This document shows positions 48,136 through 64,000 of a stretch of 64,000 nucleotides of DNA, piece after piece. Position numbers and translations under genes: made by a program. The notes under the pieces are model-generated. The model had not been told where the DNA came from and ran no database searches. It saw only the letters and a list, made by a program, of their open reading frames with translations. The stretch's first letter is position 1. Each line of letters starts with the position of its first letter. Location of the stretch: the UHGV virus genome UHGV-1374526; one strand, given 5' to 3'. This DNA comes from a virus.

Positions 48136-48141
48136 TCTCCC

Positions 48142-49147: not shown

Positions 49148-49233
49148 GTATTGACATCATAGGTACTGCATGGTATAAAGAATCCACAACGACATCATTC
49201 TGTTTGGACTGTAAGTTGTTTGGGTTCTAAGCG

Positions 49234-49272: not shown

Positions 49273-49777
49273 AGTTCTGTTTCGCTTCGAGGGATTCTAT
49301 TAGCTGGGTAATCTCTCCGATACATCGTTGCAATTCCGATGCGGGGTTTACCTCAACCAACTTATCATGCGCCCAGATATAGAAGAGCCGTACCAGAATG
49401 GAATCTTCGGGGCTACGTTGGTAGCTATGGCTCATGACTGTACGCCTGAACTGTTCAAGGATAAGGTAAAGGTCAAACGTTTCGAACACCTTGGACCAGT
49501 GCTTAGCGTGGTACTCCAAATACCATCGTGCTTTCTTGAGGTCTTCAATACGGTTCTTCTTGTACTGTGACCGCATCAAATACTTGACGGCGTTCCCTAA
49601 TGCGAAGGGAAGCTTGCCAGTAATTTCTATGGTCTCGATTCCGCTGGGGTGGGAGGTGTAATGCTTCGGGTGGTTGACGGCATCGTTCATGGATTCCTTT
49701 CCTTCCGGCAGGTCGGGGAAAGCCTGTGAGTTTACCTTGGTTGAAACGATTGCGTTGATTGCTTCGTGAGCGTGCAT
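49271..49777 (-). CDS. DUF3310-like protein (tentative)
   Basis: AVNHPKHYTS resembles the HPxHY signature I associate with DUF3310. Confidence 0.35.
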   Translation of the reverse strand: MHAHEAINAIVSTKVNSQAFPDLPEGKESMNDAVNHPKHYTSHPSGIETIEITGKLPFALGNAVKYLMRSQYKKNRIEDLKKARWYLEYHAKHWSKVFETFDLYLILEQFRRTVMSHSYQRSPEDSILVRLFYIWAHDKLVEVNPASELQRCIGEITQLIESLEAKQN

Positions 49778-49778
49778 A

Positions 49779-50384
49779 CTATTTGGTGAGGTGCTTGTAA
49801 ATTTGTTTGTTGATATATTTGCGAATAGACATCTTGGCTATGACGAAGAGGCGGGGAGAGGGTAGAGTTAAACATCCCTCTTTGACTGTCCACTTCCTTG
49901 TAATTCTCCGTGCGAACTTGTACGCCTTCCTGCATATTTCCAGAGCCGCAGAGGAACTTCCAACAAGAGCCACGGGGACTTCACCTTTGATGAAATAGCC
50001 ATGAAATTTAAACTGGAAGAAAAAGGAGTTGTCCTCCTTAATCCAGCTAGGGGTTTCATCTGGGGTAGTTTCTCCAACTGCACCTATGGAAAGTTTACTG
50101 GACGCAAGGATGCGACCATAGGTTAGTTGTTCCTCGGTCAGTTGTTTCTTCGACCGGAGAGAGGCATGGATAAGTTGCTTATGTTCAGGCATGATGCGAG
50201 ACCGAAGCTTGTTAGCTTTTGTCTCCCTCAAGAACTTCCTTTGCTCCGCGGGACTATCTCGATACCAGTAAAATTTGTCTCCGTATTTCTTGCACTTGAA
50301 CTTTCCTCTTCGACGCTTCGCAGTTGGGGCTTTCATGTTAGCCGCCATCTGTTCCCGATACTTCTTGAGACTTATTTTGCCCAT
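49779..50384 (-). CDS. hypothetical basic protein
   Basis: 201 aa, Lys/Arg-rich N-terminus. Confidence 0.45.
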   Translation of the reverse strand: MGKISLKKYREQMAANMKAPTAKRRRGKFKCKKYGDKFYWYRDSPAEQRKFLRETKANKLRSRIMPEHKQLIHASLRSKKQLTEEQLTYGRILASSKLSIGAVGETTPDETPSWIKEDNSFFFQFKFHGYFIKGEVPVALVGSSSAALEICRKAYKFARRITRKWTVKEGCLTLPSPRLFVIAKMSIRKYINKQIYKHLTK

Positions 50385-51043
50385 AGTTCTGGAACGGAAT
50401 GAAGTCGGTTAGCATTAACGGGGATGTCCTTGAATGCCCATGCGAGGTCGTACTTCAATTCCATCTTTTGCCGGAGGGCCAGAAGGAGCGCACGGATTTG
50501 CGGTTGGGCCGCGCCGTCCAATCGCATACGGAAGATGTGCCTCCACTCGCGGAGGTTAGCAGTCACGCCAATCACCGTAGCCGTACAGTTCGGAAGCAAT
50601 CCCCGCGCTTCTTCGGGAGGCAGTCCTCCTTGGACAAGTTCCACGTACTTCTCCGCAAGGTTCTGGCAGGTATTCTTAAACTCTTCAATGGTCTTCGGGT
50701 CAACCTTCTCGTCGCTAAAGAACTGCGGACGGACGAAGCAAATGATTCCCTTCCGGGAGTAGTTGACAAACCTCTGGCTCTCCATGCTGACGCTCATGTG
50801 ACGATGACGGACAAGCTGATGTGTCACCGCTCTATCCGTCGAGAGGACTGCCGGGATGTTGATATGCTCGATGACACTTTCATGTCCGCGGTTAATGATA
50901 CGGGAGAGAAACGCAATGGGGTCGCCCTTCGGTTCGCTTTTATAGCAGACACGGCCCATTATCTCTGCGGCCTCAACCTGTTTATCTATTACTGATTTAG
51001 TTAGCGGAAGTGTGACTTCCTGATTTATCCATAGAACGTTCAT
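50372..51043 (-). CDS. thyX: flavin-dependent thymidylate synthase ThyX
   Basis: RHRHMSVSMESQRF matches the ThyX RHRx7S motif. N-terminus MNVLWINQEVTL...AAEIMGRVCYKSE matches the ThyX start, so the start is trimmed from the ORF-track 51199. Confidence 0.7.
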   Translation of the reverse strand: MNVLWINQEVTLPLTKSVIDKQVEAAEIMGRVCYKSEPKGDPIAFLSRIINRGHESVIEHINIPAVLSTDRAVTHQLVRHRHMSVSMESQRFVNYSRKGIICFVRPQFFSDEKVDPKTIEEFKNTCQNLAEKYVELVQGGLPPEEARGLLPNCTATVIGVTANLREWRHIFRMRLDGAAQPQIRALLLALRQKMELKYDLAWAFKDIPVNANRLHSVPELWAK

Positions 51044-51317
51044 GAATGATATGTTTGGCTTTGTAGTTTGCGAGTTCAAGAGTGGGGAATGTCCATCCAT
51101 ACTGGCCCCACTCACTGGTGCTGGGGAGGTATTCATCTCCGGCTTTAACCTTGATGAAATCATTGTCCGCTTTGTGCTGACGGATGATGACAACCTCATA
51201 ATTGTTTACCTTCCCGCTTCCTTTATGGGTTAGCTCATAGATGGCAACGCCAGCCTCACGGAAAATGAGGCGACAGGTGAAGGGGTTGCGTGTAAATTCG
51301 TTAGGAATTTTTTTCAT
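50997..51317 (-). CDS. hypothetical protein
   Basis: 106-aa ORF overlapping the ThyX start. Confidence 0.35.
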   Translation of the reverse strand: MKKIPNEFTRNPFTCRLIFREAGVAIYELTHKGSGKVNNYEVVIIRQHKADNDFIKVKAGDEYLPSTSEWGQYGWTFPTLELANYKAKHIIHERSMDKSGSHTSAN

Positions 51318-53271
51318 TTGTAATTGAAGGGTTAATCATTTGCATGAATTCTTCTTCTGTAATTGAAGGAATCTTGTGGAGCCTCGCAATCTTTTGCTTG
51401 TGCTCCCCCGGTTCCTTACCGACAACAAGGTAGTTGGTCTTCCTTGACACGTTCTCCTTGACCGTGCCTCCCATGTCCTGAACGAGCAGGTTATATACAT
51501 GGCGAGGCTGGGACAGGGTTCCCGTGATGACGAAGTTTACTCCCCGCAACGCGGTGCTCTTGGGAACATTGCCCTCGGCATTGGGAATATCTCCTGTCAT
51601 AACCATTGCCGTCATCTCGTTCCACGTTGGCACGGTCTCCATGTAATTCAGAATTGCCTCGGTCATCAGGGGGCCGAACTCCGCATGACGCTTGTTCCTT
51701 AAATCTTCGGGGAAGAGAGTGAGGAAAGAGTAGAGATTGGGGTAAGCATAGGAGAGACTTTCCGCACGGGTGCAACCGACATGGGGAATCTCCATCGCAG
51801 TAATCCATTGAGCAAGGGTTGCATGGTGCTTCCGTTCCTCCACGATTTCAAGGAATCCTCTGTACCCTTGGGTTCCGGGGATTCCGTTGATGAGATTGTC
51901 CATCGTGCCGGACATGAGAAGCAGGAACGGGTGATGGAGGTAAGCAGTTTCTGCGGTCGGAGGCTCTACATCATTCTCCCCGGCGAGCAGTTTGTCTGCA
52001 ATCATACGTGAGAATACAAGTCCCATGCCATCAATGTCCAGTGCATTCTTACCGCATGCGTATTCCAGCTTGGCCGCTACCTTATCCCTGCACAACGGAT
52101 TGGTACAGAAGATGTTGAGGTCACTAGAGGATAACGTGGAGCCGCAACAGGGACAGGTCAGAGGGACAACGGAAACCGTATTGCCACAGCCGCGGACCCT
52201 ACGAACGTAGGGAATAATCTCCCCTGCCTTAATCACCTCCACGGTATCACCAATGTGGAAGGAGGCCGCATTAGCCACGTTGGAGAGGGTGGCACGGGAA
52301 ACGTTGGTTCCACCAATCTTCACCGTATCGAAGACAGCAACCGGGGTAAGAACTCCGGTTCTGCCTACTTGCCAAATGACATCTCGGAGGGTAGTTTCAA
52401 CTCCCTGCGGGTTGAACTTAAAGGCTACCGCGTCCTTCGGGTGATGGGCGGTAGCCTCTCCCGCATGGATTATAGCATTCTTCTGGTTCAACTTAAACAC
52501 AATACCATCAGTGGGATAGGCATTGTCGTCGCGCAGGTACTTGGCCATGTCCCGGATGTATTCATCCGTCAGAGCTTCACCTTCTGGCCATTCATTGGGG
52601 AGGGTTACGAGGTCAAACATTTCCATCAGCCACCCATGCAGTTCCATGCGGGATTCAACACCCTCCGGGAAGGGACTTGCATCGAACGGGATGAAGGTAA
52701 TGAGCCAGTCAGACCACTTGAGCTTATTGTTGCGGAGTTGACCAACGGCACAGGCGCGGAGGTTGGAGTACCCCATGCTTTCCACCCGCCCCTCTTCGCT
52801 CTTAGCTACGACCACTTCCCCACGGATAGCTCCCGTGTAATTGCCATAACTTGGCGGGACCATGTAGAGAACCTTATCAAGGGGGATTACTTCCCCCTCG
52901 GTTCCGTTGCCACGGGTAACGGCCTTGACGAGCCGCCCCTTTTCAATGTACAGGACGAGGGTGAGGCCGTCATACTTTGGTTCAACCACGACGTCACGTC
53001 CGGCAATCCAGCCGCGAAGCTGGTCCATACCAATGCCGTCCTTGCCCTCATGAATCTTGGCAAGGGAGAGCACGGGATTAGGATGCCGGAAGGTCTTGGC
53101 TCCCCGTTGTACGTCGTCCCCAAGACTATCGAGTTCCTTGGATTCCGGGGAACGGGAACGCAGTTCTTCAACCAGCGTATCGTAAACCGTGTCAGGGAGA
53201 AGGGTTTTCCCCTCTTTGTAGTAGGAGCTATTGAAGATAGCAATCACTTCTTCCAACTCCATCACGCTCAT
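51301..53271 (-). CDS. ligA: NAD-dependent DNA ligase LigA
   Basis: Adenylation motif EPKYDGLTL (KxDG). Cys4 zinc finger CPCCGS...C...C. C-terminal BRCT-like region. N-terminus SYYKEGKTLLPDTVYDTLVEELR is typical of LigA, so the start is placed at M26 of the ORF-track sequence (53271) to match the LigA N-terminus. Confidence 0.8.
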   Translation of the reverse strand: MSVMELEEVIAIFNSSYYKEGKTLLPDTVYDTLVEELRSRSPESKELDSLGDDVQRGAKTFRHPNPVLSLAKIHEGKDGIGMDQLRGWIAGRDVVVEPKYDGLTLVLYIEKGRLVKAVTRGNGTEGEVIPLDKVLYMVPPSYGNYTGAIRGEVVVAKSEEGRVESMGYSNLRACAVGQLRNNKLKWSDWLITFIPFDASPFPEGVESRMELHGWLMEMFDLVTLPNEWPEGEALTDEYIRDMAKYLRDDNAYPTDGIVFKLNQKNAIIHAGEATAHHPKDAVAFKFNPQGVETTLRDVIWQVGRTGVLTPVAVFDTVKIGGTNVSRATLSNVANAASFHIGDTVEVIKAGEIIPYVRRVRGCGNTVSVVPLTCPCCGSTLSSSDLNIFCTNPLCRDKVAAKLEYACGKNALDIDGMGLVFSRMIADKLLAGENDVEPPTAETAYLHHPFLLLMSGTMDNLINGIPGTQGYRGFLEIVEERKHHATLAQWITAMEIPHVGCTRAESLSYAYPNLYSFLTLFPEDLRNKRHAEFGPLMTEAILNYMETVPTWNEMTAMVMTGDIPNAEGNVPKSTALRGVNFVITGTLSQPRHVYNLLVQDMGGTVKENVSRKTNYLVVGKEPGEHKQKIARLHKIPSITEEEFMQMINPSITNEKNS

Positions 53272-53281
53272 GTTTTTAGGA

Positions 53282-53533
53282 TTACCTATCTCCATTGTCG
53301 TCTTCCTTTCTGACTGGAATAATACCTTCACTAATGAGATTGTCAAGTTCTTTCTCTACTATCTTGTGACAATCTGAAGGAGGCATAAGTACAAACTCCA
53401 ATAAGGTAACATACTCCATCCTCAAAGGGACTGTGTTATACTCGCTAGCTTTCTTCACTAAATTCTTACAGATTGTCCGAATAATTTTCCGTACAAGTTT
53501 ACGATATTTCTCCTGTTCTCTAGTCATTTCCAT
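53282..53533 (-). CDS. hypothetical small protein
   Basis: Start trimmed to avoid a 53-nt overlap. Confidence 0.35.
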   Translation of the reverse strand: MEMTREQEKYRKLVRKIIRTICKNLVKKASEYNTVPLRMEYVTLLEFVLMPPSDCHKIVEKELDNLISEGIIPVRKEDDNGDR

Positions 53534-53537
53534 TGCT

Positions 53538-54137
53538 TTATGCTTCGTGGGGCAGAATAATTTTACGGGTGTTAGCTTCCTTCTCGGCAAGCTCCGACTT
53601 ATCTACGAAGGTAAGAGTGGATTGTTCCAATAGGTTCATGGAAATTACATTGCTCGCCACGGAGAAGAGACGGAATGCGGAGATGCCTCCCTTCTCTTCA
53701 TCAATGCGGTCCGGGTCGTTCTGACTGGCATACGCTACCAAGAGGTGAATGGCCATGAAGAGGACGAGTGCCTTAATCATGACGTGGGAATCTGTAAAGA
53801 TATTGCACGCCTTGCCGGGGTTCTCAAGCTCCTGCATAAAGGCAATGTATTCCTTTACAGTGACGAGGTTCTCGGCGACTTCTGCCATGATGAACTGAAC
53901 TCCCGCCAACGGCGGGGGTTCAATATCAAAGATGTTGGAGGCGTAGTCCCCCAGTTCAAGAGCCTTCTCGGCAACCGCCTCCGCGGGCGCGTCGATGGGC
54001 AGGTTGAAGGCAGGGACTGCATCCCACTCCCGTTGCAGTCTTTCCTTCAACATGATAGACTTCGGTTCGGTGAGAATGCGGGCTACCTCTTCCTGAATAT
54101 TATCAAGGCTCAATTCGTTTGGTTCTGTGGTATTCAT
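53538..54137 (-). CDS. hypothetical protein
   Basis: 199 aa. Own promoter at 54145-54174. Confidence 0.45.
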   Translation of the reverse strand: MNTTEPNELSLDNIQEEVARILTEPKSIMLKERLQREWDAVPAFNLPIDAPAEAVAEKALELGDYASNIFDIEPPPLAGVQFIMAEVAENLVTVKEYIAFMQELENPGKACNIFTDSHVMIKALVLFMAIHLLVAYASQNDPDRIDEEKGGISAFRLFSVASNVISMNLLEQSTLTFVDKSELAEKEANTRKIILPHEA

Positions 54138-54144
54138 GTGGGGA

Positions 54145-54174
54145 TAATAGTATCTGGGTTTTATTACTTGTCAA
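54145..54174 (-). promoter_or_regulatory. leftward sigma70-like promoter (TTGACA-16-TACTAT)
   Basis: Read on the minus strand. The -10 ends 9 nt before the ATG at 54137. Confidence 0.4.
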
Positions 54175-54700
54175 GCTCTTTCTTTTCGTCTTTATCTATT
54201 TCATTCAGAAGATTGCAGAGACGTTCCATTTCGGTTGTTCCCTCACATGAAGGGTTGACACGTAAGGACTGGTTCTTCTTGAAGTCCCAAATAGCTCCGT
54301 CGATAACTCTGAACCGATAATGCAGGTCGATTGGCCTGATGAGAAGAAGAGAGGCAGGGGTTACTGCTTTGATAGTTCCTGTACATTTATCCTTAATACC
54401 GACAAGAACGGAATCCTTCTCGTCCTCCATTACAGTCCATTTACCTATATGTTCTCTACAAATTACCTCGTCCCCCTCCTTAAACTTCCGAAGAGGTGTA
54501 GGGTAACATTTGATTGCTTCTTCATGACGGACAACCCCCTCACCCAGAGGGAAAGCATTTAAGACTTTGTATCTGTAGAAGTTCGGGGAAAGCTCGACTA
54601 CTCTCCCCACGTAATACTCTCCACCCAGTTCTCTGACAATGTAGTCACCGGGGTTAATGTCCTCGTCGATATATCTTTGATAGTCTTTGGGTTCTAACAT
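54164..54700 (-). CDS. hypothetical protein
   Basis: 178-aa ORF. Confidence 0.45.
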   Translation of the reverse strand: MLEPKDYQRYIDEDINPGDYIVRELGGEYYVGRVVELSPNFYRYKVLNAFPLGEGVVRHEEAIKCYPTPLRKFKEGDEVICREHIGKWTVMEDEKDSVLVGIKDKCTGTIKAVTPASLLLIRPIDLHYRFRVIDGAIWDFKKNQSLRVNPSCEGTTEMERLCNLLNEIDKDEKKELDK

Positions 54701-54814
54701 ATTCTTGATAGTAGTGGTTATAACTTTTTGGATTTCGTTCGTATTCTTTTTTCTGTTCCTCCATTATCTCCCGAGTTAAACGGGAAACCCGAAGGAGTGC
54801 AAGAAATTGTTGGG

Positions 54815-55390
54815 TTAAACTCTTAGATTGCATTGGAAGGAATCTTTGTGGAGCGAGAGGATTTCATCCTTAGATAGCGTGCTCATGTTAAGCACCATGT
54901 GGTCAGGCGTCATGGACAGAATCTCCGCACCCGGCTCCGTAGGAAATATACAACCCAATTTAACGGAGCGGGCAAGAGATGGGCGGGCCTTAAACATAGC
55001 GTCGTAAAGGGTTTTGCTATACCTAACGGCGTAAAAATTATGGTAGGAAAATAGGGTCGCATAATCATGGTTTTCTCCGCGCTTCACCTTATGGTAGTTG
55101 AGACGAATGATGCGCACCGTTCTATCCTCATAGGCATTTGGGTCGTAGAGTGTCCTAACCGCAAAGAAGATGCCTGACGTGAATACCTCCCCAATACCGA
55201 AGGATTCAATCTGGAATTTGGTCTGTTCAGATTGGAGAATATTATCCTCCGGGTTCCGGGGAATATAGAACTCTCCCTTGACATGGGCAGGAAGAACCAT
55301 AGGGCTTCCAAGTTTTCCGGTACGACCATTATTATCCCGTGCCCAAGAATGAAGGAGCATGATTTGTTGAGCGAGTGCGATAGGTTTCAT
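54815..55390 (-). CDS. hypothetical protein
   Basis: Start moved to MKPIALAQ (55390), which sits about 25 nt downstream of a TTAGAAACCTCA motif. The ORF-track start at 55498 would overlap the next gene. Confidence 0.45.
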   Translation of the reverse strand: MKPIALAQQIMLLHSWARDNNGRTGKLGSPMVLPAHVKGEFYIPRNPEDNILQSEQTKFQIESFGIGEVFTSGIFFAVRTLYDPNAYEDRTVRIIRLNYHKVKRGENHDYATLFSYHNFYAVRYSKTLYDAMFKARPSLARSVKLGCIFPTEPGAEILSMTPDHMVLNMSTLSKDEILSLHKDSFQCNLRV

Positions 55391-55424
55391 ATCTGTTTTG
55401 TTTTTGTAGAGCGATGTGAGGTTT

Positions 55425-55778
55425 CTAAATATCCAGTTTCCAGCGAATAGTTGGGTAGCCGTCCTCACTGGATTCAAGGTAAAGGAAGATGCCGTCACGA
55501 GATATTACGAAGGTCACGCTATCTGGGACGTACCCGCACAGATAAATGTATATATCCTTGACAACCATAGAATAGGGCAACCTATAGGTTCGTATGGGGA
55601 AGATGTTTTCTCCAGTCTTTGATGATATTGTTTGTTGAAGACAAAGTAGCATCCGCTTTTTCCGACTAGATATTTTGAAGCTGATTGCAAGAGGGTCCTG
55701 CTCTTTCGGCTTATCGGGGTACGGCTTCCTTCCAGTTGTGGTTTCTGCTTGGCTAAGTATTAGGTCAAAATTCTCCAT
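55425..55778 (-). CDS. hypothetical protein
   Basis: 117 aa, preceded by the TTAGAAACCTCA motif. Confidence 0.4.
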   Translation of the reverse strand: MENFDLILSQAETTTGRKPYPDKPKEQDPLAISFKISSRKKRMLLCLQQTISSKTGENIFPIRTYRLPYSMVVKDIYIYLCGYVPDSVTFVISRDGIFLYLESSEDGYPTIRWKLDI

Positions 55779-55809
55779 AATAATTTCTAGCGTGCTTTGA
55801 GGTTTCTAA

Positions 55810-56163
55810 TTAGAAGATAGGTCGAGTGAATCCCATGTCTTCAAGGCAACGGGCGAGGCGATTTGCTTCCAGCTGATGCCGCTTTAGGCGTCGGCGTATG
55901 ATGTCAATGCCCCATTCTACCAGTAGCTGGAAGACAAACCAGCCCGTGATGATGACGCACCATGTAAGGTACGATACGAGAAGTTCACCAGTGGCAAGGA
56001 GATAACCTAAACAAACCAGCGCACTTACGAGGGCAACAATGTCCACTACCGAGTGCAGGTGCTCCACGAGGCTCCACAAGGCATGAAGCCTATCGGCTCG
56101 CCCGATGTGGTGGAGACAGTTCTTGCGGAGGATGACGACGTTAGATTCTTTTTCGGATGTCAT
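55810..56163 (-). CDS. small membrane protein
   Basis: TM segments LVSALVCLGYLLATG and VIITGWFVFQLLVEWGIDII. Confidence 0.4.
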   Translation of the reverse strand: MTSEKESNVVILRKNCLHHIGRADRLHALWSLVEHLHSVVDIVALVSALVCLGYLLATGELLVSYLTWCVIITGWFVFQLLVEWGIDIIRRRLKRHQLEANRLARCLEDMGFTRPIF

Positions 56164-56193
56164 ACTATAGAGCTATGTGAGGTTTCTAAGGGT

Positions 56194-56799
56194 TCAACGG
56201 AGTACGAGCTTCACGGTTTCCAGATTCAATTCATCGTGCCATTTGTTGCTCGTAAACTTCACCATGCAGGGGAGGAAGAAACGTTCTGCCAGCTTGCGAA
56301 CCTTTATGGAGTTAAGTTTATTCATGGATTCCTTATCGGGTGTGAGGAATCGGAAGCGCATATAGGTGAGGCTACCGTCAACCATGAAGTCCACCGCCCC
56401 CGCTTCCTGCGCAATACGCAACCCCACTTCCTGCCAGTTCTGATTAACCACCGCAATAAAGTGCTTTGCCAGTTCTATAGCATCCCCTACAGTCATAGCC
56501 GCCGTTTCCGCAAGTTTCCACACCGTGCCATTCCACTTCAACTTGTGGAGCCGGACAATGCACGCACCATTGTGTGTGCGTTCCAGTTCGATTGCGTAGG
56601 GCCGCATGTACGGCTTAACATACACCGTGCCTTCTCCATCCCACTCGGAAGGCCTGTCTATCCTATGGGATATTACACCTGCCTTAAAAGAAAAGATTGC
56701 AGGTTGAAGTTTATTGATTTGATTTGTGAGTTTAAGCCATTCCGTGCGGGAAAGTTCATCACGTTTCCTGCCCTTAATATCAATGTCAAATGCAGTCAT
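56194..56799 (-). CDS. hypothetical protein
   Basis: 201-aa ORF. Confidence 0.45.
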   Translation of the reverse strand: MTAFDIDIKGRKRDELSRTEWLKLTNQINKLQPAIFSFKAGVISHRIDRPSEWDGEGTVYVKPYMRPYAIELERTHNGACIVRLHKLKWNGTVWKLAETAAMTVGDAIELAKHFIAVVNQNWQEVGLRIAQEAGAVDFMVDGSLTYMRFRFLTPDKESMNKLNSIKVRKLAERFFLPCMVKFTSNKWHDELNLETVKLVLR

Positions 56800-56860
56800 A
56801 ATTTTGTAGTGTTCTTTGTTGGTTCTAAGAGAAAAGATAATACTCTATCAGGTTTTTACT

Positions 56861-57190
56861 TTAGTATGTATGATACTGTCCTTCAAGGATATTTGCATAG
56901 GCTTCAACGCGTTCGGTAGATACGATATGAAAGCCGTTGCAACTTGCGAGCCGTTCCATATCCCGCATTTGCCGGGTAGTGGTTTGTGAATATTCTTTGG
57001 TCGTAATATACAGTACTTTACCTCGGCGGTCGACGGTGGCAACGTGCGTTTGATAGGAGAAAAGTCGGGTGCGCTTCCATGACATGGAGCGCAAACGCTC
57101 TCCGTATAATCCAGTCCGCAAGGGAGACTTGCCACTTTCTTTTCTGCCTTCAAGGTATTCCTTGCCTAATTTTTCAATGTAGGTTCTCAT
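56861..57190 (-). CDS. hypothetical protein
   Basis: 109-aa ORF. Confidence 0.4.
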   Translation of the reverse strand: MRTYIEKLGKEYLEGRKESGKSPLRTGLYGERLRSMSWKRTRLFSYQTHVATVDRRGKVLYITTKEYSQTTTRQMRDMERLASCNGFHIVSTERVEAYANILEGQYHTY

Positions 57191-57227
57191 GGTGTTTTAT
57201 TGTTTAGGTTTTCAGTTGTATGATAAA

Positions 57228-57554
57228 TTAGAGCGGCCAAGAAATAGTTTCCGGGGAATCAGAAAGGGCAAGTACAAAGTCAGTTTCAAACTGTCTTATC
57301 ACAATGTACCCTTGTTCCGGCGTATATCCTTTAAGTTCTCCCAGAATGTACCAAGAATCCAGCCTGATTTTAATCTCACTTCCCCGGGGTAGGGTGGGAA
57401 GTAGCTTCCTTGCTTTTTCGATTCCCTTGCATACCCTATCCGTAACGGTAAGCATGAGGGCGGTATCTTCCTTCCAGTTATGGGGCAAGATTGTCATCTT
57501 GTCAGGGTCTGATACGTCCATTTCGTCATAGTCTAATTTTAGTATTTCTTTCAT
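57228..57554 (-). CDS. hypothetical protein
   Basis: 108-aa ORF. Confidence 0.45.
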   Translation of the reverse strand: MKEILKLDYDEMDVSDPDKMTILPHNWKEDTALMLTVTDRVCKGIEKARKLLPTLPRGSEIKIRLDSWYILGELKGYTPEQGYIVIRQFETDFVLALSDSPETISWPL

Positions 57555-57641
57555 AAGTTATTTCTTTCTAATGGTGTTTTATTGTTTGGTTAGAGTTATT
57601 TGAGGGTTCTAATAAATAGGGTAGCTGGGGCGGGGTTTAAG

Positions 57642-58391
57642 TCATGCCCTGTAGGAGGGAAGGGTGGAAACGGTTGTGTGGTTATAGTCGAAGCGATAGT
57701 ATTGTGCACCAGTCAGGTTTTTAAGGCCTTGCTTCAAGCTCTCCACTTGTTCTTCCACTTTAACGGCTTGTGCAAAATAGGCGCACACGTAGTCGGAATT
57801 GCAAAGGCGGTAGTTTGAATCCTCAATTTCTTGAAGCTTGGTATCAAGGCGAACCATATCATTGAAGATTCCTTCAATGAATTTCTCCATGTCCCTCCCG
57901 GTGACAATCCGCTTCTGCCCCTGCGTCAATTCATTGACGTCAAAGTTAAAGGAAATATTTACGGTATCATACATGCCGGGGAGGATATGATGAAATACCA
58001 CTTTCTGCCATGAGTAGTGACTCCTATCTATATAGGCTCGGATTTTAATGTCCGCATCAACGCTTTGTTCGATTGCGGCGGCCAGACAGTCATTCATCAT
58101 CCGTTCTACTCGGACGTTATAGACCTTGCCTTCAAACTGGCGGAGGCGTTCGGCCACTAGTATCAGCATGCGGTGAGTAATAAAGGCGGCCAGACCATAG
58201 GCGGCATTATCTCGGACAACCTGTTTCAGGTTATGCCCCATGTTTTTCACCGGGATGACATAGTCATTCTGATTATTCTTCATGAGGTCGTCACGCACCT
58301 TGTCTACGGCGGCATCGATAGCGGCATTTGCCCGTTCAGTAAGGGCATTAATGGCGGCGGCACTGTTGAGGTTTGCGGATGTAGTATTCAT
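57642..58391 (-). CDS. hypothetical protein
   Basis: 249-aa ORF with promoter/hairpin cassette upstream. Confidence 0.45.
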   Translation of the reverse strand: MNTTSANLNSAAAINALTERANAAIDAAVDKVRDDLMKNNQNDYVIPVKNMGHNLKQVVRDNAAYGLAAFITHRMLILVAERLRQFEGKVYNVRVERMMNDCLAAAIEQSVDADIKIRAYIDRSHYSWQKVVFHHILPGMYDTVNISFNFDVNELTQGQKRIVTGRDMEKFIEGIFNDMVRLDTKLQEIEDSNYRLCNSDYVCAYFAQAVKVEEQVESLKQGLKNLTGAQYYRFDYNHTTVSTLPSYRA

Positions 58392-58464
58392 TGCTTTATT
58401 CTTTCTATTAGTTTATTGTTGTTTGGTTTATTGTTGCGGGGTTTGTCCCCCGCTGGATGATTTC

Positions 58465-58492
58465 AGTTTAGCAGATTTTCTTATCTTGTCAA
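58465..58492 (-). promoter_or_regulatory. leftward promoter cassette copy (TTGACAAGATAAGAAAATCTGCTAAACTG)
   Basis: -35 TTGACA and -10 TAAACT on the minus strand, followed by leader hairpin gcgggg/ccccgc at 58436-58453. Confidence 0.55.
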
Positions 58493-58530
58493 ATTATTTT
58501 TTAAGTTGTATGACAAAAAGCGTATCTTAT

Positions 58531-58959
58531 TTATTTTGAGAAGAGAACAACGAGGGGGATAGGAATATCCAAAAAGTTTCTATCTGTGTAAAGGGTAAAA
58601 GAATCAGAGTTTGTGCCATAATATTGCACGGCTCTTTCCCGGAATAATCTAATAGAGTTGCTTCTCACATACGGTTCGGCTTTCGGCTCGCACGTAGGAA
58701 CGGTGGTTGTGCAATCGGAAAGACGAGCACGGAACCTTTCTGTATTTTCAATCAAGTCCCTAACCTTGTAAGCGTTAAACTCTACAAGTTTAATGCTAAC
58801 GGCATTCTGAATACTGACGTGTTCATGAATCTCCTGCGCGTCCGGGTAGTAGTCATAGGTGCGCACAATGCGGCACTTTTCACCTTGGCTATTAACGGCG
58901 TTTGATGAAACGTCTTGCGCTTCCGTAGTTCCCCATACTTCAATCTCATTTTCTTTCAT
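58531..58959 (-). CDS. hypothetical protein
   Basis: 142-aa ORF. Confidence 0.45.
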   Translation of the reverse strand: MKENEIEVWGTTEAQDVSSNAVNSQGEKCRIVRTYDYYPDAQEIHEHVSIQNAVSIKLVEFNAYKVRDLIENTERFRARLSDCTTTVPTCEPKAEPYVRSNSIRLFRERAVQYYGTNSDSFTLYTDRNFLDIPIPLVVLFSK

Positions 58960-59011
58960 AGTATTATTCTTTCTATTGTTTTGTTGATATAGTTGCCGCC
59001 CTTCCGGTGGC

Positions 59012-59039
59012 TGATGAATGTACTTTAGCAGATTTTCTT
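59012..59039 (-). promoter_or_regulatory. leftward promoter cassette copy
   Basis: TTGACAAGATAAGAAAATCTGCTAAAGT on the minus strand. Confidence 0.55.
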
Positions 59040-59109
59040 ATCTTGTCAAATACTTTTTGTAGAGCGGCGTAGTTATTCACGGTCTGTAATTTATGATTGG
59101 TTTATTGTT

Positions 59110-59264
59110 AAACCCCGGAATCCCCGGAACCCGTTGCACCCGATATCCCCCGCATTCCGGGGGCGGGAATTATTCCTTTGTCTTTCTACTTTTTCTTTCT
59201 ATTTGGTTAGAGTTATTTGACGGGTTCCGGGGGTTCCGGGGTTTAAATGTTCCACGTGGAACAA
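59110..59264. repeat. iteron/inverted-repeat locus B: 24-bp arms AAACCCCGGAATCCCCGGAACCCG / CGGGTTCCGGGGGTTCCGGGGTTT (1 mismatch) separated by about 87 bp, plus palindrome TGTTCCACGTGGAACA
   Basis: Arms at 59110-59133 and 59221-59244. Palindrome at 59249-59264. Non-coding 317-nt gap. Confidence 0.65.
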
Positions 59265-59276
59265 GCCGCAAGTGGT

Positions 59277-59807
59277 TTATATTCTTCCAGTTGCCAGCGT
59301 TTGGCCGTGCATCGTGCGAACCCAGAAATTAACGATATCACGGGGACGGGGCGATACATTGTGCCCGTTCATATCGGTGAAAGTATGTCCCATTTCTACC
59401 AAGCCAATCAGGTTGCGGATAGTACTACGCAGGGTTTGATTTCCTTTCAGGTACACCTTTACCCGGCTACCGTCTGTAAGCTTGAGTTCAAGGTAGCAGT
59501 TAGTCATCCGGCAACCCGGATTTATCCATGACAAGACGGCGCCCATGTAGCGGGGCAGGACATAGTATTTTACACAGGGGCAGGGGGAACCGAAAGCCGG
59601 AGTGGCAGAATGAAGGGCAACCTGCTGGCCTTCAACGAGGTAGGCAAGATAGTAGTCTTTTTCCCACTCTTCAATGTTTTCAATGTCATCAGGGGCGAGG
59701 CTTTCATCTTCCCCACACGCCAAGTAATTGAGGGCATAGGTGGGAATGTCATGGATAAGGGCATAGTCTGATACTTTAAGAACTTCCGGTTTAGTTGTAG
59801 TCTTCAT
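59277..59807 (-). CDS. hypothetical protein
   Basis: 176-aa ORF. Confidence 0.45.
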   Translation of the reverse strand: MKTTTKPEVLKVSDYALIHDIPTYALNYLACGEDESLAPDDIENIEEWEKDYYLAYLVEGQQVALHSATPAFGSPCPCVKYYVLPRYMGAVLSWINPGCRMTNCYLELKLTDGSRVKVYLKGNQTLRSTIRNLIGLVEMGHTFTDMNGHNVSPRPRDIVNFWVRTMHGQTLATGRI

Positions 59808-59861
59808 AATATGGTTGCTTTCTATTGTTTTATTGTTGTTTGATTTTATAGGGCGGCGTAG

Positions 59862-60191
59862 TTATTCAATGGGAAGCGGGAATAATTGAGCATGGGAAGC
59901 TTTAGCTACTGGCTGGCAGAACCGTTGTTCCAGATACTGGTTAATTTCCGCCGGGTCGTAGGTACACCAAGCCCCTAACTCATTCTCTTTCACCGCCTTC
60001 CACAATCGGGCTATGTCAGAATCATCTAATTCTGGCAGGGCGTCCCACGGGTATATGTTAAGCAGGGCGGCAATGGGGCGTGCATGCGAGGATGACTTGG
60101 CGAAAAAGATAAGAGACAGAAGGCCTTCGCCGTTTTCGTAGAATGCCCATGCCGGGATTTCGTTGTCTTTCAATGTGATTTGAGTGTTCAT
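59862..60191 (-). CDS. early-region paralog A (MN.QI.LKD.E...WA.YENG.G.LSL family)
   Basis: Aligns along its length with the 62324..62692 product (HARP.AA...I.PWD shared). Confidence 0.5.
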   Translation of the reverse strand: MNTQITLKDNEIPAWAFYENGEGLLSLIFFAKSSSHARPIAALLNIYPWDALPELDDSDIARLWKAVKENELGAWCTYDPAEINQYLEQRFCQPVAKASHAQLFPLPIE

Positions 60192-60250
60192 GATATAGTG
60201 TTTTTTAGGTTTGAGGTTATGCGGGAGACAAGCTCCCGCTTGCTGATTTT

Positions 60251-60278
60251 AGTTTATCGGATTTTATTATCTTGTCAA
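60251..60278 (-). promoter_or_regulatory. leftward promoter cassette copy
   Basis: TTGACAAGATAATAAAATCCGATAAACT on the minus strand. Leader hairpin gcgggag/ctcccgc at 60221-60239. Confidence 0.55.
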
Positions 60279-60315
60279 ATACTTTTTTAGGGCGGTGTAA
60301 CTTTTCAGGGGGAAC

Positions 60316-60618
60316 TTAACGGTTATACACAATCCTTGCGCCCGCTTCTTCCAGTGCAAGACATAATGGGTCTGAAATAAAGGCACGGCTGACTACCATT
60401 TCATGAGGGCGATAGTCCGCAATGCTGATTGCCCGCATTTCCCCAGATTCCCGGCCCCTGACAAGCAAGGTAAGCTTGCTTCCGGTTGCTTCCGCTAGTG
60501 CGGCGATTAGTCCTAGCTCTTCATCATGGCGTGCGGATAGTTGGAATAGATAGGGGCGTGTTTCCCGGATATGAGCGGCTAAAATATCGATTGCCTTTTT
60601 CTTTTCGTCTTCATTCAT
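60316..60618 (-). CDS. hypothetical protein
   Basis: 100-aa ORF with conserved A-rich leader. Confidence 0.45.
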   Translation of the reverse strand: MNEDEKKKAIDILAAHIRETRPYLFQLSARHDEELGLIAALAEATGSKLTLLVRGRESGEMRAISIADYRPHEMVVSRAFISDPLCLALEEAGARIVYNR

Positions 60619-60694
60619 TGTCTTATTTCTTTCTATTGTTTTATTGTTAATATGTTAGGGCGGTGTAATTATTCAGCTTTAACGGGTTTCATAT

Positions 60695-61084
60695 TCATTG
60701 AATGATACGCAGATAAGATACATGTTGTGAATTAGAATGCCGGGTATCTTCTACCTGCTGGACGTTTTCAATGCCGAAGGGGAGCCATGCTATCTTTTCC
60801 GCTAGCGATAATCTTTCAAGGGTTAAATATGGAGATTCATTCACGGATGAAATTATCATAACGTCATAAGCACCAATCCGATAGATAGAAAACGTATCTT
60901 TCAGGTACATGCTTCCCGGCTTGGCCGTCTTGTCCTGTAGTACTTCCGAAGCTGCCCACATGGCGGGGGAAAGGGTATACTCTTTTCGGTGCAAGGAATT
61001 AAAGCTTTCAATGGCGAGGTGAACTTTTCCATTTCCTTCTACTTTTATTTCCTTTCTGATATGTAATTCTGATATGTCTTTCAT
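60695..61084 (-). CDS. hypothetical protein
   Basis: 129-aa ORF with conserved leader. Confidence 0.45.
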   Translation of the reverse strand: MKDISELHIRKEIKVEGNGKVHLAIESFNSLHRKEYTLSPAMWAASEVLQDKTAKPGSMYLKDTFSIYRIGAYDVMIISSVNESPYLTLERLSLAEKIAWLPFGIENVQQVEDTRHSNSQHVSYLRIIQ

Positions 61085-61139
61085 GGCTTAGTTTTCTTTC
61101 TATTGTTTTATTTTATAGAGCGGCGTATCTTTTCAAGGT

Positions 61140-61568
61140 TCAATAAATCTCTTCCAGCTCTTCCCATTCACCCGGGCGGGTGAAGAAGGTTTTAAGTTCT
61201 GCGTACTCGTGACATGCGCCCGTGTACATGCTATAGGAAAGCATATTGCGTTCCCCCGTTTCCTCGTCATACTCGGGCAATCCCATATCTTCACAAAAAT
61301 CTTGATATGAGCCACAATCGGACTTACACAGACAGGCAAGCACGTCATATGCGGTGGGCGTCTTTCCTCGGTTGGCAAGAGACTGATAGAAGGTGATGAA
61401 GATTGCATGCCTTTCTCCCTTCTGACGGTCTTCCCGGTGTAAGACAATTTCCCATGTACTATGTTGCTTGTCATCCCATAAGGGCGTGAACATGCCCTTA
61501 TACTTTCCGGTAATGCGGATTCCGCAATTTTCAAGGAATCTTTTTGCGTGTTCTGTATATATGCTCAT
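61140..61568 (-). CDS. hypothetical Cys-containing protein
   Basis: 142 aa. The start abuts the conserved AACAATAGAAAGAAATAATACA leader. Preferred over the alternate-frame 61133..61534. Confidence 0.45.
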   Translation of the reverse strand: MSIYTEHAKRFLENCGIRITGKYKGMFTPLWDDKQHSTWEIVLHREDRQKGERHAIFITFYQSLANRGKTPTAYDVLACLCKSDCGSYQDFCEDMGLPEYDEETGERNMLSYSMYTGACHEYAELKTFFTRPGEWEELEEIY

Positions 61569-61637
61569 TGTATTATTTCTTTCTATTGTTGATTTTTGAT
61601 TTTATAGGGCGGTGTAACTTTTCAAGGGGGGGGGAAA

Positions 61638-62189
61638 TTATACCCGGCTCACCAGTTTGAGGACAAGATTTAACCCTTCATCGTAGGTGCGCACCATATG
61701 ACGGCCTGCCTCATAGGTCTCACATTCTGCGGGCGTCAAATAGTAGCGGTGGACGAAAAACGCAGGACTAGGACGGCCATAGCGGTTATAGTCCCATGAG
61801 GCAGGGGCCTGTGCGTTGTCCCACTGTAGCCATGCAACGGGAACATAGTCTTGCGAGGTATAAAGGTCTACGAGTTTATCGGTGGACAGGGCGAAAAGCC
61901 ACTTACCGCCGTGAGAGTGGATAGAGCCGAAAACGTCATCCAATGGGACTACCGCACCCGGGTTTTTGACTAGGGTAGCAATCTCGCCGTTAGGTAGGAT
62001 TGCCCACACGGCGGAGACGCGCCCGCCGTCATTATCTCCTTCAATGTAGGCATACAGGCCCGCCCCTTCATAATAATCCGGAGAATGTACGTCTACCGCA
62101 CCTTTGATTCCTTCCGGGTGCATGTTCCTGAAATGATTTGCGAGGCCTGTGAATGTGGTGGCGGGAATATTAATGATTTGATTGTTCAT
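61638..62189 (-). CDS. hypothetical protein
   Basis: 183-aa ORF with conserved leader. Confidence 0.45.
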   Translation of the reverse strand: MNNQIINIPATTFTGLANHFRNMHPEGIKGAVDVHSPDYYEGAGLYAYIEGDNDGGRVSAVWAILPNGEIATLVKNPGAVVPLDDVFGSIHSHGGKWLFALSTDKLVDLYTSQDYVPVAWLQWDNAQAPASWDYNRYGRPSPAFFVHRYYLTPAECETYEAGRHMVRTYDEGLNLVLKLVSRV

Positions 62190-62257
62190 TGTCTTATTCT
62201 TTCTATTGTTTTAGTGTTTCTTTTCGTTGTCCGGGTTGTTCCCCCGTTGATGATTTC

Positions 62258-62285
62258 AATTTATCAGATTTTCGTATCTTGTCAA
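62258..62285 (-). promoter_or_regulatory. leftward promoter cassette copy
   Basis: TTGACAAGATACGAAAATCTGATAAATT on the minus strand. Confidence 0.55.
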
Positions 62286-62323
62286 ATTGTTTTTTGAGTT
62301 GTATGACAAAAAGCGTAAGTTAT

Positions 62324-62692
62324 TCAGCACACGAGGGAGACGAGGCCGAACGCCCACTTTGCGGTGTAGCCCATGCGCTCTTCTTCCATGATTGTTTCAA
62401 CGTTGCCCGTAGGGTAGATGACGGTAGTATACGCAACTGGCCGGGTAGCCTCTTGCCTCAAAAATGTGTGGATATCGGCAATGTCATAGTTAACGCCTTC
62501 CCACATGTGAATCATGTCAAGGTCTGCCAGCGCGGGCTTAACGTCCCATGGGAGAATGTCAAACACCGCCGCAACAGGGCGGGCGTGTGCGATTGTTTCA
62601 GCGTACAGGACAAGAGACAGGACGCCGGAACCGTTTTCGTAGATTGCCCATGTCAGCGTTTCACCGTCTTTCAATTTGATTTGATTGTTCAT
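62324..62692 (-). CDS. early-region paralog B
   Basis: Paralogous to 59862..60191. Confidence 0.5.
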   Translation of the reverse strand: MNNQIKLKDGETLTWAIYENGSGVLSLVLYAETIAHARPVAAVFDILPWDVKPALADLDMIHMWEGVNYDIADIHTFLRQEATRPVAYTTVIYPTGNVETIMEEERMGYTAKWAFGLVSLVC

Positions 62693-62761
62693 TGTTTAAT
62701 CTCCTATCTATTGTTTTAGTGTTTCTTTTCGTTATCCGGGTTGTTCCCCCGTTGATGATTT

Positions 62762-62789
62762 CAATTTATCAGATTTTCGTATCTTGTCA
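62762..62789 (-). promoter_or_regulatory. leftward promoter cassette copy
   Basis: Near-identical to the copy at 62258-62285, including about 60 nt of flanking sequence. Confidence 0.55.
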
Positions 62790-62833
62790 AATAGTTTTTT
62801 GAGTTGTATGACACAATCATAAGTGCCTGATTA

Positions 62834-63472
62834 TCATAGGGTGAAGAGAGCCGTGTACTCTCTTGTACCGTCTCCCGTGCCTCTGAAAATATCATCAGCG
62901 GGAAAGGGCAGGGCCTTAACTGCGGCAAGTAGGGCGTCTTCAATCGCGTCCGCCTTTTCCGCTGGCAAGCCCGCGCCGTAAGTCACAGAGAGAAGAATCT
63001 CTGTAGGTTCAGGGTCTTCCGTGCCAAGCGGGCCGCATGTGAGAGCTTCAACCGCTTCCAGATAGTCCACATTGCCAAGGCGTCTATCATGCACGATTGC
63101 AAGACGGTCTTTCTTAATTTTCCGGCGCAACCGGGTGGCAACCTTGCGGATGATTGCGAGCTTTTCAGCCGCAACGGCGGGTGCGTCATCTTCTGTCTTT
63201 TCTGTCTCTTCTGTCTCTTCTGTCCACCGCACCGCCTTGATGAATAAGCACAAGTCAAGAAAATTGTGGTGGTGGATATCCGGGTTGCAACCGCCGGAGA
63301 TGACATAATCCATGAGTGCGGCCTTGACGTCATCTTCATTTCCGCTATCAACGGCGGTGGCAAGGTTGTTCATGTGGAAAAACGTTGCGTAGTCATAGAT
63401 TGCTTTAAGGTGCGTTGCGGGAACATAATTGATTGCACCCTCGCGGCGGTCTAAAATGATATCGATAATCAT
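62834..63472 (-). CDS. hypothetical acidic protein (TEETEETEKTEDD repeat)
   Basis: 212 aa. The first gene of the leftward block as seen in this window. Confidence 0.45.
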   Translation of the reverse strand: MIIDIILDRREGAINYVPATHLKAIYDYATFFHMNNLATAVDSGNEDDVKAALMDYVISGGCNPDIHHHNFLDLCLFIKAVRWTEETEETEKTEDDAPAVAAEKLAIIRKVATRLRRKIKKDRLAIVHDRRLGNVDYLEAVEALTCGPLGTEDPEPTEILLSVTYGAGLPAEKADAIEDALLAAVKALPFPADDIFRGTGDGTREYTALFTL

Positions 63473-63526
63473 GATTTTAATCCTTTCTTTTAGATAGTGT
63501 TCTCATTGTTCCGGGTTGTTCCCGGT

Positions 63527-63554
63527 GGATGATTGCAATTTAACATGATTGCGG
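63527..63554 (-). promoter_or_regulatory. leftward promoter (TTGACG-16-TAAATT) with CCGGG-AACAA-CCCGG leader hairpin
   Basis: Hairpin at 63501-63515 (plus strand) between the promoter and the ATG at 63472. Confidence 0.5.
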
Positions 63555-63619
63555 AGAGCGTCAAGCGGTTTTCTTTCCGGCGCGTTGTAACTCGCTAACT
63601 ATCTGCGAGTTATAATTGT

Positions 63620-64000
63620 GTCATACAACTTTTGTGTGCGGTTGCGTCATACTCGCTAGCGCGTGCGGTTGCGTCATACAACTTTCCCGGTTCCCCCGGT
63701 TCCCCCGGTTCCCCCGGTTCCCCCGGTTCCCCCGGTTCCCTTTTATATATATAGTGTAGGGAAATGTAAATGTAAATGTAAATGTTCCACATGGAACATT
63801 TATGCAATCCGGATTCCGGATTCCGGCAATCGGGCAATCGGTTTGTTGTGGTGGGATAGCGGGTTCAACGGCTTCAACGGGTATCAGGATTCAACGGGTA
63901 TCAGGATTCAACGGCTTCAACGGGTATCAGGATTCAACGGATATCCGGTAGTTGTGGTGGGATAGCGGGTTCAACGGGTTCAACGGGTTCAACGGGTTCA
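63620..64000. repeat. repeat-dense non-coding region with multiple tandem repeat families (candidate genome terminus/origin)
   Basis: GCGTGCGGTTGCGTCATAC x2. CCGGTTCCC x6 (63686-63740). AAATGT x4. Palindrome AATGTTCCACATGGAACATT (63781-63800). GGATTCC x2. GGCAATCG x2. Roughly 30-bp unit GTTGTGGTGGGATAGCGGGTTCAACGG x2. Many (G/C/A)TTCAACGG and GGTATCAGGA units up to the window edge. Confidence 0.7.

Follow-up and report, generated by a model that had tools for sequence, protein, structure and literature searches.

The elements known as PeSLs (promoter-early stem-loops) were described from T4-type phages by Arbiol et al. 2010 (PMC2839356) and Comeau et al. 2014 (PMC4122927). They unite a sigma70 early promoter and an AT-rich tract with a polyG/polyC stem-loop and a ribosome site. 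In hyperplastic regions they recur ahead of orphan genes and mediate modular shuffling. For one PeSL stem-loop, reduced read-through has been demonstrated (PMC2839356). PeSLs are the closest known system to the subject of this report, which is a family of promoter-hairpin-leader cassettes on the minus strand of the virus genome UHGV-1374526. The phage is uncultivated and comes from the human gut, and the 64,000-nucleotide (nt) stretch analysed, hereafter called the window, represents most of its genome. We consider it probable that each cassette combines a sigma70-type early promoter, a 5′ stem-loop and a leader that lacks a Shine-Dalgarno (SD) sequence, and that these units double as recombination modules.

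Many characteristics of PeSLs recur in the cassettes. At the level of consensus, the promoters share a sigma70-type sequence and an AT-rich stretch or A-tract upstream, and a stable GC stem-loop lies next to the promoter (in 36 of the 38 variants considered here). Both types of element are intergenic, are reiterated ahead of orphan genes in a plastic region, and extend from the stop codon of one gene to the ribosome site and start codon of the next. Close relatives (24 loci here) are distinguished by indels, replacements and rearrangements with junctions at the cassettes, and one of the five PeSL subclasses carries its stem-loop downstream of the -10 element, as do the cassettes. However, the stem is fixed in place after the presumed transcription start, whereas PeSL stems occupy five variable positions. 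The cassettes also have no terminator tail, the SD sequence is replaced by a shared A-rich leader, and an extra module (M2/M3, described below) is present. Terminator activity and excised mini-circles, which carry one gene and a chimeric cassette, have been shown for PeSLs; in the cassettes, the lack of a T-run argues weakly against termination. Furthermore, the phage that carries them is not T4-type: its genome of ~70 kb encodes PolA, a helicase, TerL and a ligase, and no T4 core genes were detected. On this comparison, the most fitting description is that of PeSL-like early cassettes with regulatory and recombination roles: they are analogues of PeSLs in a new lineage, not strict members of the group.

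Clusters of host-takeover promoters at phage genome ends are also familiar from the terminal redundancy of SPO1, the A1-A3 promoters of T7 and the pre-early/early region of T5. These have in common with the present locus their tandem strong host-type promoters, their small genes of unknown function and their location at the first-entering genome end, but they are not described as units of promoter, 5′ hairpin and common leader. The early genes of T7 are separated by long RNase III stem-loops, whereas the hairpins here have 4-8 base pairs (bp).

A reiterated candidate promoter

Five matches to the pattern TTGACAAGATAnGAAAATCTGnTAAAnT (≤3 mismatches) were found in the window, all on the minus strand between 58465 and 62790, compared with 0 expected from 100 shuffles, and a sixth, diverged copy (TTGACG-16-TGTTAAATT) lies further upstream (63537-63564; Table 1). 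The reiterated cassettes proposed in an earlier reading of the letters alone (the sequence-only reading) are therefore real, and they constitute a duplicated family, as that reading had suggested, and one that recombines. The copies take the general form TTGACA-16 nt-TGnTAAAnT, fall within 5.1 kb and occur nowhere else in the window. All six consist of TTGAC(A/G), a 16-nt spacer and TAAAnT (score 9-10/12), and five of the six carry a TG directly ahead of the -10, so that the proposed sigma70-like promoter fits a -35/extended -10 arrangement. The precise consensus quoted in the sequence-only reading is exact in three copies; the copy at 59049 reads TAAAGT, that at 60278 shows two differences and that at 63564 has another spacer. 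The cassette ranges it gave are accurate apart from 59012-59040, which clips the promoter and misses the hairpin at 58995-59011.

An exact-pattern scan of IMG/VR yielded 23 related loci on human-gut contigs of up to 70.5 kb, and a protein-based scan added relatives at ~80% identity. Together, the window and the 23 loci contain 76 promoter copies, which reduce to 38 distinct downstream sequences. In diverged copies the spacer has been swapped (AGATAAG to ACACTCT, for example) while TTGAC(A/G), TG and TAnnnT are kept. The first promoter, that of cassette 6, has four different GC-rich spacers among relatives and retains its hexamers and TG. Since the search pattern dictated the hexamers, per-column conservation of the promoter is to some extent a circular measure, and we therefore used only two features that were not so dictated, the G at -14 and the upstream A-tract, both of which are conserved. 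Replacement of the spacer while the -35, TG and -10 persist is the signature of a sigma70-type promoter, and we judge this assignment, made from consensus and conservation pattern, to be well supported. A similar promoter without a hairpin faces the opposite way in one relative (L017). Of the three separable modules into which we propose to divide the cassette (promoter, hairpin and leader), the first would be a strong promoter for the RNA polymerase with the host primary sigma factor, with TTGACA, the 16-nt spacer, the extended -10 TGnTAAAnT and the upstream A-tract as its parts.

The sequence-only reading had also seen a fit to a TTTG...TAnnTTG pattern, and a promoter of the Bacteroidota type, with a -33 TTTG and a -7 TAnnTTTG box, in a phage that is SD-less like that phylum, has to be weighed. 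A TTTG does stand 19 nt ahead of the TA in most copies. Upstream regions of 75 open reading frames (ORFs) across the whole window are A/C-rich, G-poor and almost devoid of SD sequences, and Bacteroidota are the main SD-less phylum of the gut (PMC6847099; PMC10783764). However, the fit is poor. The TTTG of the -7 box is missing, since this box reads TAAAnTnn in the cassettes (in the forms TAAACTGA, TAAAGTAC or TAAACTAA), several copies have GTTGACA rather than TTTG, and TAnnTTTG boxes are not enriched in the window (30 found compared with 30 expected). Moreover, the conserved ACA of TTGACA and the TG at -15/-14 are explained only if the promoter is of the sigma70 type. SD-scarce gut genomes, although mainly those of Bacteroidota, include Akkermansia (PMC10783764), whose transcription start sites show -35/-10 elements (PMC4782308). 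A Bacteroidota-type promoter is accordingly improbable in our view. Because the phage combines near-absent SD sequences with sigma70-type promoters, both of which are features of Akkermansia, a host that is SD-scarce and outside the Bacteroidota, such as Akkermansia, is a reasonable guess from the literature. GTDB genomes scanned with TerL peptides and with the promoter motif gave no match.

Hairpins locked to the promoter

A hairpin follows the promoter in all six cassettes of the window. Two of these hairpins are individually strong (z -4.4 and -3.5) and four are moderate (z -1.5 to -2.1), and their significance lies in their shared position, 11-12 nt after the -10. Among the 38 distinct variants, the 36 that fold into a hairpin have their first paired base 11-14 nt (mode 12) after the -10, and the mean hairpin folding energy is -10.6 kcal/mol compared with -3.5 for shuffled sequences. 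The hairpin is thus fixed to the promoter by a constant offset, whereas its distance to the ATG ranges from ~20 to 50 nt. At least nine stem classes are represented, namely GCGGGG/CCCCGC, GCGGGAG/CTCCCGC, GCGGGGG/CCCCCGC, CCGGG/CCCGG, CGGGGG(G)/C(C)CCCCG, GGGGG/CCCCC, GCCACC/GGTGGC, CCCCGCCC/GGGCGGGG and GCGGGGA/TCCCCGC, and the relatives at ~80% identity supply further classes. The stems measure 3-8 bp, and the loops of 3-9 nt are unrelated in sequence, with one being the exact inversion of another (ACAAG versus CTTGT).

MAFFT alone failed to register the 3′ arms of the hairpins, and we therefore used a covariance model, which was built from five sequences and aligned 67 hits (31 distinct). 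In the resulting alignment 98.8% of the cells are paired and two pairs show double substitutions. None of 500 shuffles reached the covariation score of 0.090 (compared with 0.032), and sliding the register always gave a much worse result. Stem classes outside the model add further compensatory variation. Covariation had been set in advance, in the sequence-only reading, as a refutation test of the hairpins, and compensatory changes are present both across copies and across relatives. Because pairing is kept through double substitutions in at least nine stem classes at a fixed position, selection acts on the structure of the hairpin and not on its sequence. The hairpin might instead have no regulatory function and be a by-product, generated by recombination or by replication slippage at G/C runs and carried along with the promoter. 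Variation of the polyG run from G5 to G9, the inverted loop, two junctions inside hairpins and the hairpin-less promoters all agree with such an origin, but the preservation of pairing at a fixed position needs selection for structure, and a functionless by-product is quite unlikely for this reason.

The freedom of loop and stem sequences argues against a sequence-specific reader such as lambda N acting on boxB or the virion polymerase of N4. In an N4-type system, a virion-delivered phage RNA polymerase, possibly the protein of 3231 amino acids (aa) encoded in this genome, would read a template-strand DNA hairpin and start just downstream. As in N4-like phages, this giant ORF closes the structural module, and the early block lies at the genome end with small GC hairpins ahead of early genes. 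N4 promoters, however, require a 3-nt loop and specific bases, whereas here stem sequence, stem length and loop vary freely, the conserved parts are the flanking sigma70 hexamers, and some promoters in relatives have no hairpin. In addition, searches of Pfam, PHROG and PDB sequences gave no match to the giant protein, and neither T7-like nor DxDGD polymerase motifs were found in it; its homologues are all at least 96% identical, so that no useful profile could be built. We regard an N4-type mechanism as exceedingly improbable.

Much the same evidence bears on the idea that the hairpin is a nut/boxB-like site, or another target of a phage RNA-binding protein serving as an antiterminator, translational repressor or endonuclease guide. 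The stem is short, GC-rich and proximal to the promoter, and many of the loops are purine- or A-rich (GACAA, AACAA, GGAA, GCAA) and recall the GNRA-like loops of boxB. These loops are not conserved, however, and CTTGT, TTG, CCTTAT, AAG and ACAAGCC occur as well. Unlike lambda nut sites, the hairpins have no boxA beside them, and the 14 kb block contains, before its end at 49229-49271, no terminator that would have to be overridden, so the anti-termination role offered in the sequence-only reading has nothing to act on. Pfam and PHROGs searches of 20 leftward-block and 9 large proteins revealed no RNA-binding or N-like protein, RNA polymerase, sigma factor or integrase, and Rfam at E≤1 over 48000-64000 matched no hairpin family. 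A site of this type is very unlikely.

A more serious contender is that the stem-loops are primarily attenuators or terminators of upstream read-through, which would insulate each gene without acting on their own 5′ end. A polyG/polyC stem-loop of a PeSL, similar to those described here, cut lacZ expression about as much as rrnB T1 (PMC2839356). Furthermore, transcription from the six tandem promoters would otherwise accumulate, as no canonical terminator occurs for 14 kb. Nevertheless, no T-run stands behind any hairpin, and since the block's own terminator has one, the hairpins are not canonical terminators. Two of the hairpins in the window have only 4 bp, and a strict offset from the -10 would be unneeded, though shared ancestry could account for it. 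We consider attenuation as the primary role to be possible but rather unlikely, and it is compatible with the explanation given next, the two not being exclusive.

We favour a second module in which the GC stem-loop is locked 11-12 nt past the -10 so as to start ~5 nt from the RNA 5′ end. With an assumed start 7 nt past the -10, the RNA is predicted to begin with AUC(C/A)A, followed by the stem and by an untranslated region that is mostly unpaired. A stem-loop a few nt from the 5′ end is a classical stabiliser of bacterial mRNA. A review lists the primary papers, Emory 1992, Bouvet and Belasco 1992 and Arnold 1998 on ompA, and among its stabilisers are the ompA and papA 5′ untranslated regions of E. 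coli and the SP82 polypurine/ribosome-binding stabiliser in B. subtilis (PMC3997798). The cassettes resemble these in that a stable hairpin would lie within a few nt of the RNA 5′ end, followed by an unstructured translated leader, and differ in that the function here is deduced from position only and in that the predicted 5′ tail is 4-5 nt long. A tail of this length is the upper limit for protection against RNase E. Given the lack of a U-tract, the hairpin most likely shields the 5′ end of early mRNA from 5′-end-dependent decay, which is our reasoned inference for its job. A further effect may be to weaken transcription that reads through from promoters upstream, a role proposed for PeSL stem-loops. 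Among the roles that the sequence-only reading had offered, an RNase site or a translation enhancer is likewise a matter of inference.

Several points weigh against the interpretation of the cassettes as sigma70-type promoters with a protective 5′ stem-loop. Four of the six hairpins in the window are only marginally better than shuffled sequences. The copies that were compared are a mixture of paralogues and orthologues in a model-fitted alignment, and thus the covariation events are not independent and their independence is overstated. Some promoters of relatives stand without a hairpin before the same gene families; the hairpin is therefore dispensable, being helpful and not essential. In the mRNA sense, A·C mismatches exceed G·U pairs (~4-5 versus 2), which is unlike pure RNA-level selection, and the numbers are too small to weigh. 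Also, the start site is assumed, and a shift of at least 3 nt would alter the length of the 5′ single-stranded tail. Finally, should the host belong to the Bacteroidota, promoters of the TTGACA/TATAAT type are not ones on which its polymerase would be expected to act. The A·C excess was at one point taken as a hint of a template-strand DNA function, and this idea was dropped because the events are too few.

Leaders, intergenic elements and gene shuffling

The leader core AACAATAGAAAGAA (≤2 mismatches) is present in nine copies where 0.5 are expected, all on the minus strand between 57562 and 62715 and in this block only. The leader is A/C-rich and follows most hairpins. The order of hairpin and then leader described in the sequence-only reading thus holds for the hairpin in all six cassettes and for the leader in most, given that cassette 60278 has no AACAATAGAAAGAA leader and cassette 63564 has AAAGAAAGGA in its place. 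Three leaders serve promoterless genes (60619-60694, 61085-61139 and 61569-61637), as that reading had noted, and each is preceded by M2. The leader is therefore tied to the start codon, as the hairpin is to the promoter. This linkage was not part of the sequence-only reading, nor were M2/M3 and the gene shuffling described below.

Cluster K mycobacteriophages carry start-associated sequences (SAS), which are GC-rich, SD-containing 13-mers found genome-wide. The leader core is similar in being a short conserved motif that stands a few nt ahead of the start codon in some of the phage's genes, and different in being A-rich, without an SD sequence and confined to the early block. Around the AUG, the RNA is predicted to be largely unpaired. 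SD-independent initiation depends on open structure and upstream adenines (PMC6847099), and the A/C-rich leader fits this mode of initiation. Our proposed third module is consequently an unstructured A/C-rich leader that, with AACAATAGAAAGAA 7-9 nt before the AUG, would form an SD-independent translation initiation region; an ACA-type enhancer role (PMC3879156) is a further possibility.

The M2 element, TGAAnAnnTACRCCGCYCTAYAAAA, has six copies that overlap or follow the stop codon of the upstream gene and stand directly ahead of either a promoter or a leader. A related element, M3 (TTAGAAACCTCAnAnnGCTCTAnA), fills the 30-nt gaps between the next genes (55417-57612, minus strand). M2 and M3 are confined to the leftward block, where nearly all genes have one or the other at, or immediately behind, their stop codon. 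Several identities considered for M2 were rejected. As a sigma70 promoter it is a misfit, with a spacer of 13-15 nt; as a sigma32-like promoter (CCCCCTTGAA...CCCTAT) its spacer is too short and many copies have no C-run; and as boxA (CGCTCTAC) it is in the wrong place, upstream of the promoter and not beside the hairpin. M2/M3 could represent a second class of promoter or serve as a processing site, as a site for protein binding or as a linker for recombination. Another element, the G-box TGTCATACAAC, lies 12-14 nt upstream of the -35 in three cassettes, and two further, inverted copies are located upstream of the first promoter. A regulator of the early promoters may use it as an operator.

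More speculatively, the hairpin at +5, the early-only leader AACAATAGAAAGAA and the post-stop M2/M3 elements could together form a dedicated code for an early-gene regulon, in which a phage factor would first stabilise all early mRNAs and later silence them collectively in the manner of RegB/RegA, with M2/M3 as a second promoter class or processing site and with an SD-less host such as Akkermansia. We know of no phage regulatory system described for Akkermansia, and we consider this scheme distinctly unlikely.

To follow the genes themselves, the ORFs of the 24 loci were clustered into families and their order was mapped. The cassette 1 promoter is the last ahead of a conserved gene series that reaches the terminator at 49229-49271, and downstream of this cassette the order F3-F9-F4-F5-(F19)-F6-F12-F14-F13-ligase is essentially fixed, with F19 and F16 variably present. 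Upstream of it, families F1, F2, F7, F8, F10, F11, F15 and F16 shift position, are lost or are duplicated. For example, F8 occupies three different slots among the loci, F16 lies between F7 and F1 or between F3 and F9, F15 lies ahead of F3 or behind the first F1, and F1, F2 or F8 is present in two copies in some genomes. For moved genes (92-95% identity), the homologous stretch begins within the leader, 21-43 nt ahead of the ATG, and stops in the following cassette. The same promoter-hairpin unit may be found behind either M2 or the G-box and ahead of differing leaders and genes, and these mosaic partners imply further joints in the A-tract before the -35 and just past the hairpin. Two junctions fall inside hairpins (L010 6315; L018 13710 / L041 5348). 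In L010 (~6256-6315, minus strand of the locus), the promoter-hairpin unit is fused into the middle of a gene of the 183-aa family (window 61638-62189) at a 9-nt microhomology, GCCCCTGCC, in the 3′ arm of the hairpin; this fusion is an illegitimate recombination event.

Because the modules are reiterated 6-15 times within 6 kb, they also serve as homologous-recombination joints that shuffle orphan genes between them. The proposal that the cassettes are joints for moving, duplicating and deleting orphan genes is well supported by these comparisons. An analogy to integron attC sites was also considered and was dropped, since the searches revealed no integrase and the hairpins fall far below the length needed.

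Table 1. Positions of the cassettes, associated elements and other features in the window
Feature	Position	Strand	Details
Cassette 1 promoter	58465-58492	minus	TTGACA-16-TGCTAAACT; G-box 58505-58515
Cassette 1 hairpin	58436-58453	minus	GCGGGG-GACAAA-CCCCGC; -14.3 kcal/mol, z -4.4
Cassette 2 promoter	59022-59049	minus	TTGACA-16-TGCTAAAGT; preceded by M2 (59055-59072)
Cassette 2 hairpin	58995-59011	minus	GCCACC-GGAA-GGGCGGC, A·C mismatch; -8.6 kcal/mol, z -1.8; perfect arm GGGTGGC in relatives
Cassette 3 promoter	60251-60278	minus	TTGACAAGATAATAAAATCCGATAAACT; M2 (60283-60300) directly ahead
Cassette 3 hairpin	60221-60239	minus	GCGGGAG-CTTGT-CTCCCGC; -13.2 kcal/mol, z -3.5; inverted loop ACAAG in relatives
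Cassette 4 promoter	62258-62285	minus	Identical to cassette 5 promoter; G-box 62298-62308
Cassette 4 hairpin	62232-62246	minus	CGGG-GGAACAA-CCCG, weak; -7.1 kcal/mol, z -1.9
Cassette 5 promoter	62763-62790	minus	TTGACA-16-TGATAAATT; A-tract and G-box (62803-62813) upstream
Cassette 5 hairpin	62737-62751	minus	CGGG-GGAACAA-CCCG, weak; -7.1 kcal/mol, z -1.5
Cassette 6 promoter	63537-63564	minus	TTGACG-16-TGT-TAAATT; first beside the non-coding control region
Cassette 6 hairpin	63511-63525	minus	CCGGG-AACAA-CCCGG; begins 12 nt after -10; -8.8 kcal/mol, z -2.1
G-box, inverted copies	63619-63629, 63672-63682	plus	Upstream of first promoter
Leader core copies	57562, 58399, 58967, 59816, 60627, 61094, 61577, 62197, 62702	minus	AACAATAGAAAGAA; each 7-9 nt ahead of ATG
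M2 copies	59055-59083, 59844-59872, 60283-60311, 60651-60679, 61111-61139, 61600-61628	minus	
Small early genes served by cassettes, first five	62834-63472, 62324-62692, 61638-62189, 61140-61568, 60695-61084	minus	
Small early genes served by cassettes, other five	60316-60618, 59862-60191, 59277-59807, 58531-58959, 57642-58391	minus	
Bidirectional intrinsic terminator	49229-49271		19-bp stem, hairpin and T-run; junction of leftward block with rightward genes
Giant ORF	38395-48090	plus	3231 aa; closes structural module
Iteron GGGAACCGG, six copies	63686-63748		
Iteron GAACCCGTT, four copies	63965-64000		
Iteron units of 17/9 nt	63861-63946		
TACATT, three copies	63600-64000 and beyond in relatives		Non-coding control region
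24-bp palindrome	63779-63802		Control region

Genome setting and significance

The plus strand of the window encodes, in order, PolA (392-2446), a helicase, an exonuclease, TerL (6545-8383), the structural genes and the giant ORF. Public metagenomes contain over 400 near-identical copies (96-100%) of this ORF, on contigs reaching 71.9 kb. The minus-strand block extends from 63472 leftward to the bidirectional terminator, with small orphan genes first and then an NAD-ligase, ThyX and a DUF3310 protein. The ten genes served by cassettes are all orphans apart from one DUF6926 match, and the first of them contains three tandem 9-nt repeats (63189-63224) encoding EETEETEKTE. The sole Rfam match here, a sub-threshold and spurious one to His_leader (31.9 bits), coincides with the terminator. 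Searches for isolated relatives among 50,697 phage records, by megablast with the block and tblastn with TerL, returned no match, and PolA and ligase matched phage records only at <30% identity, giving no host clue. On the plus strand at 29822-30760, four adjacent ORFs of 78-82 aa are apparently tandem paralogues, in view of the ~80% identity between the 30 nt ahead of the starts at 30283 and 30512.

The right flank of the block, beyond the first early promoter (63600-64000, and further in relatives; L017 5960-7400), consists of ~1.5 kb of non-coding DNA with iteron arrays and an AT-rich patch. Many independent virome contigs stop exactly in this region, which is probably a replication origin and/or a genome terminus, and the cassette block would therefore adjoin a genome end or origin. 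Phage early genes are usually located beside such sites. The block next to the iteron-rich DNA is therefore probably the early region of the host-takeover type. The gap between the genes at 59277 and 58959 (59130-59263) is unusually long, and it holds a second palindrome copy TAAATGTTCCACGTGGAACA (59244-59263), GGAACC/CCGGGG repeats and an orphan leader AAATAGAAAGAAAAAGTAGAAAG with no gene behind it. With this content, the gap resembles either an incomplete second copy of the control region or a scar left by the loss of a cassette.

Although this phage is frequent in metagenomes of the human gut, none of its relatives has been cultured and its early genes are almost entirely without annotation. 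The cassettes represent no new principle, but they provide a ready-made map of its early transcription units, and for a host that is hard to work with they offer candidates for strong promoters and for leaders that act independently of SD sequences. They also extend beyond T4-type phages the PeSL idea that regulatory repeats double as recombination joints for orphan genes, which suggests a general route by which phages may build and turn over their host-takeover gene sets.

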